This document shows, in pieces, positions 8,210 through 62,774 of a stretch of DNA of 64,000 nucleotides. Position 1 is the stretch's first letter, and every line of letters starts with the position of its first letter. Source of the DNA: a bacterium (GTDB lineage: Bacteria > Hinthialibacterota > Hinthialibacteria > Hinthialibacterales > Hinthialibacteraceae); NCBI GenBank assembly GCA_963662285.2, contig CAXXMV010000001.1:576001-640000 (forward strand), given 5' to 3'. A program made the position numbers and the translations under genes. Below the pieces are notes generated by a model, which was given only the letters and a program-made list of their open reading frames with translations, had not been told where the DNA came from and did no database searches.

Positions 8210-8496
8210 AAACAATAACCTGGGATAAATCCCGGTTTTGATAAAAAACTGTAACCCATGTCCCCGAACATGTGTTACCCATCTACCCGGTCTGTACAGT
8301 GGCAAGGGCAGTGTCCTTTCTGCCCTTGACGGAAAACTATTGAGAAACGAAATCATCCTTATGATTCAATATTCTGATTGGACCGCTAGTGGAATTACTG
8401 AAATAAGAGGAGACTGAATCAAGGGATCAGGCTCTTCAATCGACTAAACTATCAATAATAACTGACTCTAAGAACATATAAGCGGGAAACCATTAA

Positions 8497-13522: not shown

Positions 13523-13551
13523 ACAAATCTCTCACAACGATTGTCGAATAC

Positions 13552-13777
13552 GGGTGCCAAGGGCAGCGTCCTTTCTGCCCTTGACGATAACTATATAGAA
13601 ACTGAATATTTTCTATAATTATTTTTCTTTTTTTATTGAATGATTAACATATGGCTCTAACTACTAATACTTTAAAGTAAATTATTATTCTGTTTATTGG
13701 GTGATACAGTGATTAAATTATAGAGATATAATAGGTTAACTAAATCAAGGGCAGAAAATACACTGCCCTTGGCACCC
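13552..13777. mobile_element. MITE/REPIN-like element: inverted family A palindromes around an AT-rich spacer
   Basis: Inward-facing ends 13552-13585 and 13744-13777; homologous element at 49943-50159. Confidence 0.7.
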
Positions 13778-13823
13778 TGTATTGTTCTATATTCAGATAA
13801 TTGGATTCTCATAATCCAAGCAT

Positions 13824-17914: not shown

Positions 17915-18526
17915 ATGAAAATCGCAATTACAGCTCAACAACCATCCATTGATTCAAATATAGACCCCCGTTTAGGACGATGCGCATATCTAGTCATCGC
18001 CGATCTCGATCAGGGAACTCACGATATAATAGAAAATCCGAACACTGCCGCCTCCAGCGGCGCCGGCATCCAAACCGCGCGTCTCCTGGCCGAAAAAGGC
18101 GTAAAGGCCATACTGACCGGCAACTGTGGACCCAACGCGCATACCACGCTCACCGCAGCTGGTATTGATGTTATTGTCGGAGTTTCAGGCTTGATTTCTG
18201 ACGCTATTGAGCAATTCAAATCCAATGCTTTCACTCCGGTTAATGAACCAAATGTAAGTTCTCATGCTGGTATGGCTGATAACCAGACAGCGGCCAATAT
18301 TCCAAATCCTCCACCACTGCCCGAAGCAAATAATCCTTCAATTAATCAAGCAGGCAGTATGGGCGGTGGACAAGGCATGGGCGGTGGACAAGGCATGGGC
18401 GGCGGACAAGGCATGGGCGGCGGACGCGGCATGGGCGGCGGGCGCGGCATGGGCGGCGGACGAGGCATGGGCGGCGGACGCGGCATGGGCGGCGGACGTG
18501 GCATGGGCGGCGGAAGAAATAGGTAA
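17915..18526 (+). CDS. NifB/NifX-family protein with (MGGG[Q/R]G)n tail
   Basis: DPRLGRC, GAGIQTA, TGNCGPNA; start 17915 after AGGTG RBS. Confidence 0.9.
   Translation: MKIAITAQQPSIDSNIDPRLGRCAYLVIADLDQGTHDIIENPNTAASSGAGIQTARLLAEKGVKAILTGNCGPNAHTTLTAAGIDVIVGVSGLISDAIEQFKSNAFTPVNEPNVSSHAGMADNQTAANIPNPPPLPEANNPSINQAGSMGGGQGMGGGQGMGGGQGMGGGRGMGGGRGMGGGRGMGGGRGMGGGRGMGGGRNR
18359..18517 (+). repeat. Coding 18-bp tandem repeat, 9 units
   Basis: ATGGGCGG[C/T]GG[A/G]C..GGC encoding MGGGQG x3, MGGGRG x5, MGGGR. Confidence 0.95.
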
Positions 18527-18706
18527 TTAATCCTTAATTATTCACCTGATGGGCGCCAAGGGCAAGACCGCATTGCGTCCAGCCCTTGATCAAGCCGCCT
18601 AATATAAGGTGAGGGCGATTCTAAAATAATTGGTTGATCTATTACTTATTTTTAATGTCGGGTATTTAACATAGGTTTTTATAAATATCAGTTACAAGAG
18701 ACTAAC

Positions 18707-24721: not shown

Positions 24722-25240
24722 TTATGCGCCAAGAAATTTATAAGAGACCAAGAAATCTACCGCCATCTTTTGAGGTCCAATAATAAAATCATTCTTCTGT
24801 AACAAACTTTCCAATATGTCGTTACATTTTTTCTTTGATATTGCGTTGCCAACATAAAGGTCTCGCAATACCATTGCGAGATTCCCAAAATCGATTTTGG
24901 CATTCCTTGAATTTATTGCTAAGAGTTTGTCTCCGGTAATGATCCTCAATTGATGATGGACGCCGCACGCAAATACTAAACTATCTATTCCTGCTAATTT
25001 TGGGCTTAATTTTGCTTTGACTAATATTTGCGATAGTTGTTTAGGGGAAGGTAGTTCCCTGATTTCTACAAATCCTCTTATTCTATCAGATGTTTCGGCC
25101 AACAAGTTATCTTCTGTCAGGCATTCTTCAATAGCATATATACCTTTAAAATACTTTTTGAAATCACCATGATCCACCAGAATGTGATCTAAGGTGATTA
25201 ATGAACAAGTATCAAAAAGAGTGTTATGCCACCATTTCAC
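24722..25240 (-). CDS. PIN-domain protein (putative ribonuclease toxin)
   Basis: TLFDTCSLI, a conserved-position E, IDSLVFA and ITGDKLL give the PIN acidic motif pattern; overlaps the upstream gene by 17 nt. Confidence 0.7.
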   Translation of the reverse strand: MKWWHNTLFDTCSLITLDHILVDHGDFKKYFKGIYAIEECLTEDNLLAETSDRIRGFVEIRELPSPKQLSQILVKAKLSPKLAGIDSLVFACGVHHQLRIITGDKLLAINSRNAKIDFGNLAMVLRDLYVGNAISKKKCNDILESLLQKNDFIIGPQKMAVDFLVSYKFLGA

Positions 25241-26384
25241 TTTTATTATTAAGCCACCTTCCGGTCATTTCTTGGGCTTCATCAATTCTTATCTGAAACA
25301 TCTCTGCAACTTTAGACACGGAAATTTCTTCGTTGATGAAAGCAGCGTATATTAATCTCCCGAAACGATAAGATTTATTTAATGTACTAACTTGAATTGG
25401 CTCTGGCTCCAAGTTTTCCATTATAGTTTTAACTCGAATGCCTAGTTTGCGTTTAACTTCTACAATCAATGCCTTATACGTAATCGTGGTTAAACTTTCC
25501 TGCGTAAGACGCCTGAATAAACACCAAAAACTAACGCCAAAATAGCGTTTCAATAAAACTAAAGCATTAAAAACAGGAAGCCGATTAAGATGCTCCTGCT
25601 GCCAAATGCGATAGAGTTCATTTCGAGGAACCAGGAAATATCCTGCAAATATATCGGCTTCTTTTTCATAATCACGGTCATTTTCTGTATCATCCGGCTT
25701 ATTAGTAAATAGGTGTGGATGCAATACCAAATGACCCAATTCATGCGCGACGCTAAAGATGGTTCTTTCCACTGCACGGTCACGATCACGAATCATCATT
25801 AATGCCATATCATCATATAACACACTCAATGCATCAATTCCACTTTGATTCGATTTAAAGAAAAGCGGTCTGATTCCAATATTTTCAAGAAATTTAGATA
25901 TATTTTGGTAGTTAATACCTTCTCCACCGCATTTTTCTTTTACTTCGCAAGCCGCATTTTCTAACCATCTATCAGGATTCTCCTTTGCTTCTGGAGACAA
26001 ATCGCATTGAGGTATTTTGATTTGAATCTTCGAGTTTCTTATTTCCTCAATCTCAATATAAGAATTCAAATATTTTCTCGCCATTGCGATAATCTTGGGA
26101 TCGCTTTTTAATTTCTTATGTGCACGGAAAGCAAATTTAGGCGCCTGTTCCGATTGCTTCTCGGAAAACATATCCATAATGCTGCAACCGAGAGTATTAA
26201 CAATTTTCACCAAATCTTTACTGTTAGGTTCAGTCCTTCCATTCTCGTAATTAACAATAGTATTCCGGTTTACTCCAATAGCTCGCGCTAATTGGATTTG
26301 CGTTAAACCAATACTCTCTCTCTGGAATTTAATTCTCCTACTAATATCTATATTTGTATCGTCCAATTCCTCCGTGATTCCCAT
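25224..26384 (-). CDS. XRE-family HTH fused to ImmA/IrrE (DUF955) zinc metallopeptidase
   Basis: LTQIQLARAIGVNRNTIVNYENGRTEP HTH; FRA; AHELGH (HExxH); EKEADIFAGYFLVP; start 26384 after GGAG (ORF track start 26438). Confidence 0.92.
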   Translation of the reverse strand: MGITEELDDTNIDISRRIKFQRESIGLTQIQLARAIGVNRNTIVNYENGRTEPNSKDLVKIVNTLGCSIMDMFSEKQSEQAPKFAFRAHKKLKSDPKIIAMARKYLNSYIEIEEIRNSKIQIKIPQCDLSPEAKENPDRWLENAACEVKEKCGGEGINYQNISKFLENIGIRPLFFKSNQSGIDALSVLYDDMALMMIRDRDRAVERTIFSVAHELGHLVLHPHLFTNKPDDTENDRDYEKEADIFAGYFLVPRNELYRIWQQEHLNRLPVFNALVLLKRYFGVSFWCLFRRLTQESLTTITYKALIVEVKRKLGIRVKTIMENLEPEPIQVSTLNKSYRFGRLIYAAFINEEISVSKVAEMFQIRIDEAQEMTGRWLNNKSEMVA

Positions 26385-26450
26385 GATCCTACTCCGTTTT
26401 CTGACAATCGTCCCGCCATATTCTCCCTTATTATGCATAATACTTTGTTC

Positions 26451-26523
26451 ATTTTACAGACAATTAGGTTTGAGTCAATACTATATGCACAAATATTTGT
26501 GCATATAGTATTGACTCAAACCT
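26451..26523 (-). promoter_or_regulatory. Promoter of the HTH-IrrE/PIN pair overlapped by a perfect 58-bp palindrome (26466-26523)
   Basis: Minus strand TTGACT-16-TAAAAT; AGGTTTGAGTCAATACTATATGCACAAAT|ATTTGTGCATATAGTATTGACTCAAACCT. Confidence 0.7.
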
Positions 26524-26622
26524 CCTACTTGATTCTGGATTTTTCGAATAGCGAATCAGAATGCTTTTATCAAGAACCATTCTATTTCCCTATATTCCCT
26601 CTCATTCCCCAAAAAAAACCTA

Positions 26623-26650
26623 TTGTTTTTGTCATATAGGCTAGTATAAT
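26623..26650 (+). promoter_or_regulatory. Sigma70-type promoter of RNA unit 1
   Basis: TTGTTT-16-TATAAT, then GTAGAAAC 7 nt downstream. Confidence 0.55.
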
Positions 26651-26656
26651 TAATAC

Positions 26657-26855
26657 GTAGAAACATAAAACAAGGGGCCGCTCGAAGTACCATGCCCCTA
26701 TTCGGGTCTAAGAGATATTCGATCTCTTGACCAAGGTTCAAGCCTCGGAGCGCAATGTTTCGGGGAAGAGAAAGGATGGCGTGAATGATAGAAGATACGC
26801 CGCCTACAAAGTAAGAAGGGGTCATCAACTATGCACGATGGCCCCTTCGCTTTTT
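26657..26855 (+). ncRNA. Candidate structured RNA unit 1 (multi-hairpin, mini-ORF MIEDTPPTK, intrinsic terminator)
   Basis: Own promoter and terminator; ungapped direct repeat of unit 2 with substitutions in loops or pairing-compatible. Confidence 0.6.
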
Positions 26856-27000
26856 AAATAGTAATTTTTTTATTCAAAAAACCACCCTAATTCACCTATC
26901 TCTTTATCAATCAATATAATGCAGGCATATCGCAGGTATGAGATTATTTTCCTCCAGACATTTGTACTATTTATTTCCCCATATTTCCAAAAAAACCCTA

Positions 27001-27028
27001 TTGCATTTACCATACAGGCTGGTAAAAT
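27001..27028 (+). promoter_or_regulatory. Sigma70-type promoter of RNA unit 2
   Basis: TTGCAT-16-TAAAAT with TGn extended -10, then GTAGAAAC 7 nt downstream. Confidence 0.55.
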
Positions 27029-27034
27029 ATATAT

Positions 27035-27230
27035 GTAGAAACAAAAACGGGGCCACTCGCAGTACAATGCCCCTATTCGGGTCTAAGAGATATTTAATCT
27101 CTAGACCATGGTTTAAGCCCCGAAGCGCAATGTTTCGGGGAAGAGAAAGGATGGCGTGAATGATAGAAGATACGCCACCAAAAATGTAAGAAGGGGTCAT
27201 CAACTATGCACGATGACCCCTTCGCATTTT
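27035..27230 (+). ncRNA. Candidate structured RNA unit 2 (mini-ORF MIEDTPPKM)
   Basis: Paralog of 26657-26855 at 375-bp offset; terminator GAAGGGGTCATC/GATGACCCCTTC. Confidence 0.6.
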
Positions 27231-27269
27231 AAACAACCATTGTTCTCCTATATTCCCATATCACCTGCT

Positions 27270-28784
27270 TTACCAAATCGAAGCCATATCCCATATATCA
27301 ACTGACTTGCACATGGCTGATCCACCATTAGCGGTTAGATATATCACGCTGGATTGATTCAATGCGGGAATTACAGTCGTACAACAGGCGCGATCATTAA
27401 CATATAACTCAACAACCGCTTTATCGATGAATAATTGAAATTTCACCTGCGTCTCGCCATCAAGCAACTCAAACGGACCCTGGTTTTTCTCTATGCCGAC
27501 TGTTTTATTCTTCAGGTCGAACAAAATGGGAACGCTTGCCGCTTTCTCATCAATGGTTTTTATTACCAATCCAAAAGAATCGGCTGAACCAGGTTCAAAG
27601 ACAGCCGTAATCTCTTTAGCGCATTGCTCGATTGATTCAATATATATAGGCGTAGAAGCAATTTTCCTGGCGCTGATTATGCGGTGATTCCTATGCAGTT
27701 CTTTCAATTCCGGCGCCGGTTTCATGCCCAGGCTGCCGTCCTTGAGCATGGTCATGATACGCGGCAGAGTCATGGCGCCATTCCAGCCCTTGCCTTTGAT
27801 ATCGCGAATCCAGCCCCACATAATGCGCCGCCCCTGAGCATCTTCCAGGCAATTGGGCGCATAAAAATTGTTGGAATAATCCAGCAAAGCGCGATTCCCG
27901 GAAGTGAAAGTAAAATCTTCATTGAACGATCCGGTATGATACATCACCCGGCTGTGCGGTGAATAAATTAGAGTGTACTTGTCGCCCAACTTGAAGAAAT
28001 TAGGGCATTCCCAATTTTTCTCATTATGCTCCGCTTTGGATTGATAGAGGATATTGAGATATTCCCAATCAACCAGGTTCTTGGATCGGTAAACAAAAGC
28101 GGCGCCCCGTCCATCTTTGGGGTGTCCGCCTAGAACCACGAACCAGTCTTTACCTTTCTTAAACACAAATGGATCGCGCCAGTCCAATACCTTCATATCA
28201 CCATGCAGTTTCTCTGTCATAACCGGATTAGCGGGATGCTTATCCCAGGTTAACATGTCATCATGGCTGATAGCCGCCCACTGCACCGCCCCGTCACCCG
28301 CAGGAGTTTTTGGACCAATACTGGTATAGAGCATGGTCGGTACTCCTTTATCATCAATTACGCAGCAACCCGAGAAGCAATGATCCTCGCCTTTATCTTT
28401 CGAAGGCGCCAACGCTATCGGCAGATGCCTCCAATGCGCCAGGTCCTTGCTCACCATATGCCCCCAATGCATGTGTCCCCAATTCTCGCCATAAGGATTA
28501 TGCTGATAGAACATGTGATATTCGCCCTTGTAATAAATCGGGCCATTAGGATCATTGTTCCATAAAGCTGGAGGCTGCAAATGATAAACCAGCCGCGTCG
28601 CATCTCCTTCGACGGCCTTCTTCGCCAGGGCTACAGCGGCGTTAGCTTTGGCTATCTCTCTTTGGTGAATTTCATTATGCGCTTTGATTTCAGATTGATC
28701 ATCAGAAGCGGACGAAATTACGCTAAAACCAAATATAAACAGAAAAACGGATAAACCCAATCTTAAAAATCGCTGCATTTCCAT
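27270..28784 (-). CDS. Secreted GH32 beta-fructofuranosidase/levanase
   Basis: WNNDPNG, YQHNP, WGH, FSG, RDP, WECP; signal peptide. Confidence 0.95.
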   Translation of the reverse strand: MEMQRFLRLGLSVFLFIFGFSVISSASDDQSEIKAHNEIHQREIAKANAAVALAKKAVEGDATRLVYHLQPPALWNNDPNGPIYYKGEYHMFYQHNPYGENWGHMHWGHMVSKDLAHWRHLPIALAPSKDKGEDHCFSGCCVIDDKGVPTMLYTSIGPKTPAGDGAVQWAAISHDDMLTWDKHPANPVMTEKLHGDMKVLDWRDPFVFKKGKDWFVVLGGHPKDGRGAAFVYRSKNLVDWEYLNILYQSKAEHNEKNWECPNFFKLGDKYTLIYSPHSRVMYHTGSFNEDFTFTSGNRALLDYSNNFYAPNCLEDAQGRRIMWGWIRDIKGKGWNGAMTLPRIMTMLKDGSLGMKPAPELKELHRNHRIISARKIASTPIYIESIEQCAKEITAVFEPGSADSFGLVIKTIDEKAASVPILFDLKNKTVGIEKNQGPFELLDGETQVKFQLFIDKAVVELYVNDRACCTTVIPALNQSSVIYLTANGGSAMCKSVDIWDMASIW

Positions 28785-30452: not shown

Positions 30453-31619
30453 CTATTGTGACGCCTTTTTCTGGATTGCCAAGTTATCTTCTTTGATTTC
30501 ATTCAAACGCAGATCGAGCGTCTTGATTTTTTGTCGGCAAAAATATACGTCCATCATCCCATCGGTCATAGCGGGTTTCAAGGCAACCGGGCATCCTACC
30601 AGGGCGCGGCTCACCCGGTAATCTTCACCACGGTACGCCACCCGACCTCCTTGTTGCACCTTCCTGATAATGCTGCCCGGCGCGTACTCGATATCCGGCA
30701 AACTTCCCGGATAAACAAAAGGACTGGACGTATAATGGTTAGCCGGGACATCCATATCCAGGGCTTCGTGAGGACGCTCAAAATTGTATTCATAACGCCA
30801 CTCATCAAACCGCCTTTGGCAATATTCCAAATCCACAAACGATTCCCTTATCAGCAATTCTTGCTTAAAGGTCCGGTGAAATCGCTCGACCTTGCCTTGG
30901 GTTTGCGGATGGTAGGGGCGACCGTGATACACGCGAATACCCAATCGTATCAGCCATATTGTCAATCTGGTGTATTCGCAGGTTTTGCATCCTCCCCACG
31001 GACTTCCGTTATCCATCAACATCGCCCGAGGCATACCATACATCCTGAACACGCTTTCCAGGGAGTCTTGCACGGTTTCCCTTTGCTGATTGGCGCACGA
31101 AAATAATCCGGGAACAAAGCGCGTGCAATCATCCAGAATGCTGAGCGGATAACAGCGTGCTTTGAGCGTGGGAAAATCTCCTTTGAAATCCATTTGCCAC
31201 AATTCGTTGGGCGTATCTTTTTCAAAACGCTTATAGGCTTTGTGCTTGTGACTTTCCTTTTCATCCAGCAATCCCAGTCGGCGTAACACGGCAGTAATAG
31301 TGCTGGCGCTAGGAACATTTTCGTATCCCAATTGAATCAGACGAGAGCGAATTTTGCGTCCTCCCCATCCTTTTTCGCGATTTTCTGTAATGGCTTGCTC
31401 GATAGACTTATCTGTTTGATGAGGGCAAGTATTGGGTTTTTTGGAACGGTCTTGGAGATTTTCGACTCCTCCTTCTTTGTACCGTTTGATCCATTTGTAA
31501 CCCGTCTTACGGCTGATATCAAACCGTTTACATAATTGGCTGATGTTGCTTTCTTCTTGCTGGCTCAACAATACGAATTCTTTTCTCAGAGACATAAGGT
31601 CCACCTCGTTCCAGGGCAT
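30453..31619 (-). CDS. IS481 transposase, identical protein to 6883..8049
   Basis: Identical 388-aa translation. Confidence 0.95.
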   Translation of the reverse strand: MPWNEVDLMSLRKEFVLLSQQEESNISQLCKRFDISRKTGYKWIKRYKEGGVENLQDRSKKPNTCPHQTDKSIEQAITENREKGWGGRKIRSRLIQLGYENVPSASTITAVLRRLGLLDEKESHKHKAYKRFEKDTPNELWQMDFKGDFPTLKARCYPLSILDDCTRFVPGLFSCANQQRETVQDSLESVFRMYGMPRAMLMDNGSPWGGCKTCEYTRLTIWLIRLGIRVYHGRPYHPQTQGKVERFHRTFKQELLIRESFVDLEYCQRRFDEWRYEYNFERPHEALDMDVPANHYTSSPFVYPGSLPDIEYAPGSIIRKVQQGGRVAYRGEDYRVSRALVGCPVALKPAMTDGMMDVYFCRQKIKTLDLRLNEIKEDNLAIQKKASQ

Positions 31620-33326: not shown

Positions 33327-33792
33327 GGATAGCTCGAAATAATCTGTAGAAAAAGAAGTAAAAAAACAGTTCTAGCAAGTAAGCAATTCAGAATACGTTG
33401 ATATACCTGAAAACGGATTATCTCTTTAAAAAAACAGATAAGTTGCCATAATTTGCGAGACAAAAGTGTAAACCATGTGCCCGGTCTAAAGTGTAAACTA
33501 TGTGCCCGGTCATTCAGTCCCAGGCCTTTACAAAGATTGGGAGAGGTTAGGAGAGGGTTGATAGCGACCACTTTTGTAAAGAAATATCCAACGATGTTAG
33601 TAGGCAATGAATCCAAACAAAACTTGTGGATAATGACCAGAGTTTTGGGGAAATGGATTTTGGATATATAACCATTTATATTTTTTTGACTTAGATATAA
33701 ATAATACTGTAGCCAAACATTCCTCTCCCAAGATTGGGAGAGGTCAGGTGAGGGTTGATAACAATCAACCTCGAGAAGAGATAGTTATTTTC

Positions 33793-35294: not shown

Positions 35295-35392
35295 GTTTCG
35301 CCCTGAATGACCAGACGGGTGGCAAGGGCAGTGTATTTTCTGCCCTTGATCAAACCACCTAATATTAATTTATGGTGAGGGATATTTTCAAA

Positions 35393-45644: not shown

Positions 45645-45858
45645 TTCTCCCCCCAAGCCTGGGGGGAATTAGAGGGGGGGTTGCGCTTTGATCAACCAAC
45701 CCCCTCCTAACCTCCCCCAGGCTTGGATGGGTGGCAAGGGCAAGACCGCATTGCGGTCAGCCCTTGATCAAACCACCCATTACTTGGAGAAGATCTATAG
45801 GGGAGGGCGCTTTGATCAACCAACCCCCTCCTAACCTCCCCCAGGCTTTGGGGAGGAA
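45645..45858. repeat. Composite REP cluster (family B-like units with an embedded family A unit) inside the ABC operon
   Basis: Direct duplication of GCGCTTTGATCAACCAACCCCCTCCTAACCTCCCCCAGGCTT around 45729-45768. Confidence 0.8.
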
Positions 45859-49873: not shown

Positions 49874-50262
49874 CCCTCTCCCACCGGGCTGATCTTTCCC
49901 CAAAAGTTTTGTTATTATTAATGGCTATGAAGAGATCAATACGGGTGCCAAGGGCAGCGTCCTTTCTGCCCTTGAAAGATAACTATTGAAAAACGGGAAA
50001 ATTTCTATGATATTCACGTTTTTATCCTAATTTTAGTCCAACTATTAATAATTGAACGTTAATCATAATTCAATTTATTGAGTAAAACGTTGATACAAAT
50101 ATTTGGAATAAAAGAGGTAAACTCTATCAAGGGCAGAAAATACACTGCCCTTGGCACCCGTGATTATCCTATCTTCAGTTAATAGTATTTCTTATAATCT
50201 CTCATATTGATATTTTTGTGTAAAGATCAGCCCGCCGTGAGGGATAGGGCTAGGGTGAGGGG
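49874..50262. mobile_element. Three-layer nested repeat element (family B > CGGGCTGATCTTT IR > family A MITE)
   Basis: B halves at 49874 and 50241; IR 49885-49897 / 50222-50234; A ends 49943-49975 / 50126-50159. Confidence 0.7.
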
Positions 50263-62452: not shown

Positions 62453-62774
62453 AAGTACAACGATGCCCGAAAAATACGAAAAATCAGAAGTGATCGCATC
62501 AAGGGCTGACCGCAATGCGGTCTTGCCCTTGGCGCCCTTCAACGTGAACTGGAAAATCTATGGTTTTAGCAAACAACCCCCTCTTGAATTATTCCCCAAT
62601 TTGGGGGAGAGAGATTTTGAGATATAAACAGTTAGATCGTTTAGACTTAGTTATTCAAAAACACTTTAGTCACACATTCCTCTCCCAAGATTGGGAGAGG
62701 TTAGGTGAGGGTTGAAAACAATCACCCCTCGCTAACATTACTCATTACTTTATGGGTAAAAACATAATGAAACA

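Follow-up and report, generated by a model that had tools for sequence, protein, structure and literature searches.

Tandem units of an undescribed structured RNA family with a short reading frame set at the foot of its terminator

A stretch of 64,000 nt from a bacterial genome, called the window below (assembly GCA_963662285.2, contig CAXXMV010000001.1, positions 576,001 to 640,000), holds two nearly identical units of some 200 nt, A and B, that follow each other on the plus strand. The original prediction saw in them duplicated transcription units of a structured RNA outside the known families. The question that this locus raises is what kind of genetic element such a pair is, and what its RNA could do.

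The analysis bears the view of duplicated transcription units out: Rfam returns nothing for the units, homologues carry compensatory base changes, and contigs from RNA libraries contain the interiors of both copies. A and B belong to an undescribed RNA family that is confined to one bacterial family of a small, little-studied phylum. Two elements go beyond the original prediction, namely a conserved mini reading frame that ends at the terminator and two sister subfamilies. We lean, with modest confidence, towards the view that A and B are tandem sibling genes of a free-standing small RNA (sRNA), dual-function or translation-coupled, that has its own promoter and terminator.

Duplication, structure and presence in RNA libraries

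The segments 26674–26850 and 27049–27225 align without a gap and with 15 mismatches in 177 nt by direct pairwise count, exactly as originally stated. The repeat search of the window returns the pair as 202 nt at 89% identity, and a BLAST search of the own genome gives 90% across 199 nt. Both units are sharply bounded. Identity is 27% over the 74 nt that lie 3' of the two terminators and 53% far upstream (26560–26657), which agrees with the earlier claim of much more diverged flanks, although the promoter-proximal part (26610–26665, 56 nt) still has 80%.

At the places where −35 and −10 elements with a 16-nt spacer had been proposed, the hexamers are indeed found in both copies, and those of A are kept in the alignment of A and B with the third copy, C, described below. 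The predicted starts, G26657 in A and G27035 in B, lie seven nt past the −10 hexamer in each case. A scan for consensus promoters lists the hexamers of neither copy, because each −35 agrees with TTGACA at only three of six positions. Judged from the sequence, the hexamers are putative promoters.

All five hairpins named in the original prediction are present in the minimum-free-energy folds of A and B. Compared with dinucleotide shuffles, the plus-strand folds have strongly negative z scores (Table 1), and none of 200 shuffles is as good; the reverse strand of A reaches a z of only −2.28.

The claim that the RNA structure is under selection had been drawn from the differences between the two copies. 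Placed on the fold of A, these 15 differences comprise seven at unpaired positions, five exchanges between wobble and Watson–Crick pairs and three that disrupt pairs at helix edges, and they are by themselves too few to carry the argument. The conclusion stands on other grounds. The structure is under selection because distant homologues keep the helices via compensatory changes. Six sequences, namely copies A, B and C plus three distant homologues, were aligned with MAFFT and fitted to no structure. In this alignment 95.2% of the cells are standard-paired, compared to 42–52% after a shift of the 3' partners by one to three columns, and 11 of the 44 pairs have changed on both sides. None of 500 shuffles matches this alignment in both-side changes or in covariation score, while in the measure of further pair types it is not above the shuffles (443/500). 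The terminator stem (helix 5) is 100% paired here, with compensatory change at three pairs. Hairpins 1 and 2 keep their shape in the homologues of G017 and G010 despite an almost wholly different sequence.

In a 22-sequence alignment, which is biased towards the structure to which it was fitted, base pairs likewise covary: 92.5% of the cells are paired, 29 pairs have changed on both sides and all 12 pairs of the terminator stem are retained. A separate MAFFT alignment of the 3' modules misaligns hairpin 4, and RNAalifold applied to it gave the terminator only.

Rfam 15 at gathering thresholds gives no match in the 64-kb window and none in 20 homologous loci, in line with the original prediction, in which no RNA family had been recognised. 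Scans by E-value (26400–27400 and two further) return only matches of microRNA and small nucleolar RNA type, far below threshold and at chance level; the best of the microRNA type are spurious, because they are drawn by an unrelated palindrome at 26466–26523. ARAGORN finds no tRNA or tmRNA gene over 26000–28000, and a keyword search of open-access text, with supplementary files outside its scope, finds no description of the RNA. Type III toxin–antitoxin, retron, omega-RNA and CRISPR-associated RNA were also considered and rejected, as there are no fitting neighbour genes.

We now consider the presence of the units in RNA libraries. Eleven public runs contain part of a 1201-nt stretch of the locus, and six of them are recorded as RNA. 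Four RNA runs from four studies, all in the form of assembled contigs, were compared (X10 and X11 were left out); the studies are labelled aquatic or sediment metagenome, and the fragments are near-identical. In all four runs only unit interiors are found, at 95–100% identity, covering A from 26681 to 26817 and/or B from 27056 to 27189, 27193 or 27194. The B contig has an Illumina adapter at both ends in three studies, with inserts of about 134–138 nt, and the left ends, at 26681 of A (two studies) and at 27056 or 27058 of B (three studies), are homologous between the copies. The studies therefore have in common short cDNA molecules whose ends are fixed. The right end of the insert would correspond to the base of the stable hairpin of the terminator, a place of poor priming, and the left end, which falls some 20 nt downstream of the predicted start, would fit second-strand synthesis. 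Read from these contigs, A and B are both expressed. Stretches that the contigs leave uncovered, that is, the flanking genes and the A–B spacer, were not used as evidence.

Three subfamilies with one 3' module and one reading frame

The genome of the window (7.29 Mb, eight contigs, 44% G+C) contains one more close copy, C, on contig C6, with 86% identity in the own-genome BLAST. Copies A, B and C together with three distant homologues served to build a covariance model, R1. With a cut-off of E ≤ 1e-3 it has matches in 18 of the 20 genomes from the window's own bacterial family, and with E ≤ 1e-5 in 15 of the 20, while none is found in the 15 genomes of the class's other five families. The class is the whole phylum in the genome collection searched, since a phylum-level search returns the same 35 genomes.

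With a whole-genome nhmmer scan, five members, A to E, are found in the window's genome. When 30 matches are compared side by side, three kinds of 5' domain are seen over one 3' module, and this genome holds all three subfamilies. Type i is the four-hairpin form of the window copies (A, B and C), type ii has GGGAGGGCGA..TCGCCC plus a GTTGTGAAAC hairpin (D), and type iii has a GTGGYRGTGAYGCCAT hairpin (E). The coordinates used for type ii clipped several of the 5' domains, and conserved structure is not claimed for that domain. The terminator stem of D covaries (GGAAGGAACTATTG / CAATAGTTCCTTCC).

Pattern searches beyond the family yielded few further members. A degenerate pattern of the 3' module, run over genome contigs, gave mostly chance matches; among the 80 matches listed, R1 confirms three (L070, L052 and L112) and no new lineage is added. 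The record of L070 is titled Candidatus Omnitrophota bacterium, and the two others are titled uncultured bacterium. A stricter pattern over metagenome contigs gave eight loci, and L168 alone among them is a true member. Weaker R1 matches on L162, L163, L167 and L169 concern the terminator part only, and L165, where a tRNA 3' end is followed by a look-alike terminator, was rejected and is excluded from every count.

In L168, a metagenome contig of a close relative, positions 1–520 hold a tandem pair with copies 442 nt apart and mini-frames ..EDTPPTV and MIEDTPPKM. By eye, its spacer and its upstream pyrimidine and A-tract motifs are partly kept, parts of the A–B spacer recurring there. The tandem layout is therefore not unique to the window's genome.

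The 3' module that the three subfamilies have in common consists of a single-stranded AGAAAGG(A), a GC-rich hairpin GGCGT / ACGCC (hairpin 4 in the window copies), a short linker and the terminator stem. The sequence of this stem is unusually constant (GGAAGGAGTCAT... / ...ATGRCTCCTTCC), and its 5' arm (GGAAGGAG or GAAGGGG) is itself similar to a Shine–Dalgarno (SD) sequence.

It is within this module that the mini-frame lies. The start codon is in the loop of hairpin 4 (some members have it in the 3' arm instead), and the frame has 5–10 codons that often end in ..[ED][TA]-P-[PT]-x-x. Counts were made over 33 members, after dropping the tRNA look-alike. A TAA, TGA or TAG stands 0–2 nt before the terminator stem in 31 of them. 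An in-frame ATG or GTG occurs 9–36 nt upstream of that stop, with no stop between, in 30 of the 33, the counts for the two remaining frames being 10 and 3. From start to stop the in-frame distance ranges between 9 and 33 nt and is always a multiple of three, although the loop sequences differ. Four members have ATGCC or ATGCT instead of ACGCC and no start codon in the hairpin loop, and each therefore keeps a single start. In three cases (G004a, G014a and G013b) the partner arm reads GGCAT for GGCGT, which is a compensating change.

The peptides of A, B, D and E are given in Table 1, and that of C is MIEDTPPTH. Other members have MFQEDAPPKE, MQKDTPPKD, MVKIETPPEG, MIGETPPDV or MSNTPPEV, and the shortest frames have five codons (for example, MPTET). 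The peptide varies freely beyond a core of about four residues, and the frame survives the loss of Pro-Pro in several members (absent in E, G004a, G014a and G013a/b). What speaks for a real frame is that it is in register with the terminator, and not its peptide. Two other candidate frames were rejected. The one is a second small open reading frame (ORF) that begins inside the terminator, whose length differs between A, B and C, and the other is a 26-codon GTG frame at 26781 (frame +1), which is found in only 10 of the 33 members.

The SD-like AAAGGA ahead of the frame is complementary to the 3' end of the 16S rRNA (...CCTCCTTTCT; the rRNA ends ...GGATCACCTCCTTTCT). Upstream of this genome's long ORFs no hexamers are more frequent than AAAGGA and AAGGAG, which peak at −14 to −11, and the SD spacing of the mini-frame fits that of the genome's own genes.

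A side observation concerns three type ii members, L015, L016 and L019 (G002a, G012a and G018a). They have no T-run after the 3' stem (CTCTGTGAG, TGGCGTTGA), and a same-strand NMO-like gene lies 256–529 nt downstream. The 3' stem of this sub-lineage may not be a transcription terminator.

The locus and its surroundings

The coordinates of the two units, of the members D and E and of the repeats in the window are collected in Table 1.

Table 1. Features of the tandem pair, further members in the same genome and repeats in the window (positions refer to the window unless a contig is named).
Feature	Position	Strand	Description
Pyrimidine motif CCTATATTCCC with A-tract	26589..26622	+	5' of the −35 of copy A; from sequence and motif scan
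Promoter-like hexamers, copy A	26623..26650	+	TTGTTT 26623–26628, 16 nt, TATAAT 26645–26650
Small RNA copy A, about 197–200 nt	26657..26856	+	four hairpins and terminator; fold z −4.75; R1 204 bits
SD-like AAAGGA, copy A	26771..26776	+	8 nt ahead of ATG
Mini-frame, copy A	26785..26814	+	ATG ATA GAA GAT ACG CCG CCT ACA AAG TAA, MIEDTPPTK and stop
Terminator, copy A	26815..26855	+	12-bp stem GAAGGGGTCATC / GATGGCCCCTTC, then T-run
A–B spacer	26857..27000	+	variant of the pyrimidine motif at 26978; A-tract
Promoter-like hexamers, copy B	27001..27028	+	TTGCAT 27001–27006, 16 nt, TAAAAT 27023–27028
Small RNA copy B, about 197 nt	27035..27231	+	fold z −7.25; R1 201 bits
SD-like AAAGGA, copy B	27146..27151	+	from sequence
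Mini-frame, copy B	27160..27189	+	MIEDTPPKM and stop
Terminator, copy B	27190..27230	+	27190–27201 pairs with 27212–27223 (12-nt inverted repeat, 100% complementary), then T-run
Third pyrimidine motif CCTATATTCCC	27247..27257	+	just 3' of unit B
Member D	C1:315725-315921	−	type ii 5' domain, common 3' module; mini-frame (M)MLNKLAPPDG
Member E	C3:132383-132575	+	type iii 5' domain, common 3' module; mini-frame MEETLIDF
REP-like repeat copies	489-529, 8290-8365, 13545-13620, 13715-13807, 35310-35350, 49936-50011, 50097-50189		from repeat search

The pyrimidine motif and A-tract upstream of copy A could be an UP-like element or a unit boundary; a similar A-tract followed by CTATTG is found upstream of copies B and C and of the G017 homologue. 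The last pyrimidine motif, downstream of B, had been taken in the original prediction as a possible relic of a lost third unit. This idea is not upheld. There is no room for such a unit because a minus-strand GH32 gene ends at 27270, and pyrimidine runs also stand 3' of the terminators of several homologues elsewhere. From its sequence and position, we read the motif as one that flanks the units. A complete third unit does occur in the genome, but elsewhere, as copy C on contig C6.

A divergent XRE-HTH/M78-peptidase gene (25224–26438, minus strand) lies ahead of unit A. After A comes B, and beyond B stands the convergent GH32 gene with its 3' end. Across 29 matches the neighbours are unrelated and include radical SAM, sulfatase, SurE, type II secretion ATPase, major facilitator superfamily (MFS) transporter and chloride channel genes, among others. 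In at least 10 of the 29, copy C included, the next ORF of at least 90 aa downstream is encoded on the other strand and begins or ends no farther than 150 nt away, while a minority have a same-strand gene 110–260 nt downstream. The units are free-standing genes and not leaders. A link to the divergent XRE/M78 gene was considered and rejected, as copy C and the homologues have different neighbours.

Some other features of the window should be mentioned. The palindrome noted above, between the start of the XRE-HTH/M78 gene and unit A, is perfect over 58 nt (29 + 29 nt, no spacer). It overlaps promoter-like matches on either strand, and its role could be that of an operator or a bidirectional hairpin. 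An IS481-type transposase gene (rve, HTH_32, LZ_Tnp_IS481) is located at 30453–31619 on the minus strand, about 3 kb downstream of the pair. An intergenic repeat that resembles repetitive extragenic palindromes (REP), built around the hairpin GGCAAGGGCAG...CTGCCCTTG, has at least five copies in the window, some of them in both orientations. Other short repeats with internal palindromes lie at 33525–33783, 62657–62740 and 45649–45848 (CCTCTCCCAAGATTGGGAGAGG... and CCCCCC...GGGGGG-type). At 18336–18533 there is an 18-nt tandem repeat with eight overlapping registers of a 72-nt unit, which by reading of its sequence would encode a Gly-rich, GGQGMG-like repeat.

What the RNA may do

Several known systems resemble these units in part. 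Sibling sRNAs, such as Qrr1–5, AbcR1/2, LhrC1–5 and CcsR1–4, share with them the several near-identical copies, some in tandem, the own promoter and intrinsic terminator, the size of 100–200 nt and the conserved structure. They differ in that the present RNA has no Rfam match, its unpaired stretch is purine-rich and SD-like, and a tiny frame ends at the foot of the terminator. Proteins encoded by sRNAs usually have about 30–50 aa, whereas the ORF here has only 5–10 codons. In other respects the units are like the dual-function sRNAs SgrS/SgrT, SR1/SR1P, RNAIII/delta-haemolysin and VcdRP, in that a structured sRNA carries a conserved ORF with an SD sequence. Such RNAs are described, in excerpts of two papers, as small, independently transcribed RNAs that also hold an ORF (PMC12310071, PMC12612679), and the excerpts give lengths of 29 aa for VcdP and 14 aa for peTrpL. 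A further difference is that conservation here concerns where the frame stands with respect to the terminator, while the peptide varies outside the core that forms a helix arm.

The order of SD sequence, leader ORF and terminator in a short RNA is also that of rnTrpL/peTrpL of Sinorhizobium meliloti, which excerpts of two papers describe as an attenuator-derived, trans-acting sRNA whose peptide has a role as well (PMC7968998, PMC7298713). As far as these excerpts go, rnTrpL is released upstream of trpE(G), whereas the present units lack both Trp codons and a downstream gene that is consistent between loci, and their structured 5' domain is long. Leader ORFs with proline codons are known in mgtL and mgtP; like these, the mini-frame often has consecutive Pro codons just before a terminator hairpin, but there is no regulated downstream gene and Pro-Pro is not universal. 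Finally, the sponges CsrB, RsmY and RsmZ are abundant sRNAs with GGA motifs and a terminator. The units have few GGA (three in copy A), none of them looped, and a narrower distribution than CsrA.

Since the RNA has no model match and no conserved regulated downstream gene, and its frame is much shorter, it is a member of none of the systems compared. The family is new and varies the theme of sibling or dual-function sRNAs by a conserved mini-cistron locked to its terminator.

How such an RNA would act can be read from its anatomy. In the sibling-gene view, it would be a free-standing riboregulator, with an effect in trans, that doubles as a mini-mRNA. A ribosome loading at the SD sequence would have to melt hairpin 4, and at the stop codon it would sit on the lower half of the terminator stem, so that translation would remodel the 3' end of the RNA. 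The change in the 3' hairpin could then alter RNA stability, partner binding or read-through, and the variable 5' domains could supply the specificity of each subfamily. A more elaborate version, which we regard as rather doubtful, is a riboswitch-like set, in which three 5' sensor domains would share one ribosome-operated 3' output switch within a trans-acting sRNA. Passage of the ribosome would then perhaps be gated by the 5' domain and by the kinetics of Pro-Pro and elongation factor P (EF-P), and would open the SD-like arm of the terminator; the opened arm would change RNA stability, the 3' end or partner binding.

A number of points weigh against a translated, dual-function RNA. Translation of the mini-frame is a prediction from its sequence. 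Three of the 33 members are exceptions, G006a having no start and G005a and G015a running to a stop in the terminator loop, and as the 33 sequences are related, the frame counts overstate independence. The Thr-Pro-Pro codons ACGCCACC (ACG CCN CCN) are at the same time the 3' arm of hairpin 4, with a two-pair extension onto the GG of the SD sequence, and their conservation can therefore be explained without coding. Hairpin 4 encloses the start region and, according to the predicted fold, should hinder initiation. The bias of the 22-sequence alignment has been noted above. As to the library contigs, they show presence in RNA libraries, and not level, strand or absence; the adapter orientation in X3 and X4 would indicate plus-strand RNA only if these libraries were dUTP-stranded.

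The strongest competitor is a purely non-coding sRNA, either an Hfq-helped base-pairing regulator or a protein scaffold, in which the 3' module would serve a protein as a conserved handle, and the hairpin with a linker of fixed length would produce the frame-like pattern as a side effect. We consider it possible but not likely. The promoter-like hexamers and terminator, the sibling copies and the strong covariation all fit it, Hfq is found in 33 of the 35 genomes of the class, that of the window (G000) included, and the double role of the Thr-Pro-Pro codons and the GC-rich stem around the start region would be natural for an RNA that is not translated. It leaves unaccounted for the bias of start codons to one frame (30/33 versus 10 and 3), distances that stay multiples of three while the loops differ, and the stop codon at the terminator foot in 31 of 33 members. 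Moreover, sRNA seeds that target ribosome-binding sites are usually C/U-rich, whereas the conserved single strands here are purine-rich and SD-like. A leader-peptide attenuator, where a ribosome on the Pro-Pro frame, sensitive to EF-P or prolyl-tRNA, would block the terminator and permit read-through, is improbable. Its layout of SD sequence, short ORF, stop and intrinsic terminator is present, Pro-Pro is common, a ribosome at the stop would by geometry cover the 5' arm of the stem, and some homologues do have the same-strand gene mentioned above. In addition, excerpts of one paper report that loss of EF-P promotes premature termination on polyproline mRNAs, and that EF-P sustains transcription through intrinsic terminators on them (PMC5021804). 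However, A precedes B and B faces the convergent GH32 gene, copy C and at least nine other matches also face convergent genes, the downstream genes are unrelated between loci with no consistent regulated gene, and several members lack Pro-Pro. No antiterminator alternative is seen in the minimum-free-energy, centroid or consensus folds, none of which is a search aimed at alternative pairings.

Titration of CsrA by a sponge of the CsrB/RsmZ type, through GGA-containing SD-like sites, appears very improbable. CsrA is found in all 35 genomes of the class, and many members have two GGA-rich sites about 35 nt apart, AAAGGA and AGGAAGGAG. Against this, A and B have only three GGA, none in a hairpin loop, with GAAGGGG as the terminator arm, and CsrA is class-wide while the RNA is limited to one family. 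Hardly credible, in our view, is a non-functional repeat, be it a remnant of a mobile element, such as a miniature inverted-repeat transposable element (MITE), or a neutral tandem duplication. In its favour, other repeat families abound in the window, the IS481-type transposase gene is about 3 kb away, and the pyrimidine motif flanks the units. Yet no terminal inverted repeats were found around the units, the plasmid and phage collections have nothing similar to them, and there are only five members in 7.3 Mb; a MITE, which the original prediction had named among the outcomes that would contradict it, does not fit these observations. The compensatory changes across genera and the presence in RNA libraries speak in the same direction.

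The sibling sRNA genes favoured here add to a phylum with only 35 species genomes in the collection a covariation-supported RNA family that is absent from Rfam 15. What is unusual is that, in three subfamilies with otherwise unrelated 5' domains, a canonical ribosome-binding site and a frame of only 5–10 codons keep their register relative to the terminator. Should the frame turn out to be untranslated, this would still be a new structured sRNA family, suited to Rfam and with tandem sibling copies. If it is translated, it would be among the smallest conserved cistrons, and the RNA would offer a tractable case of translation acting on an sRNA's own terminator.

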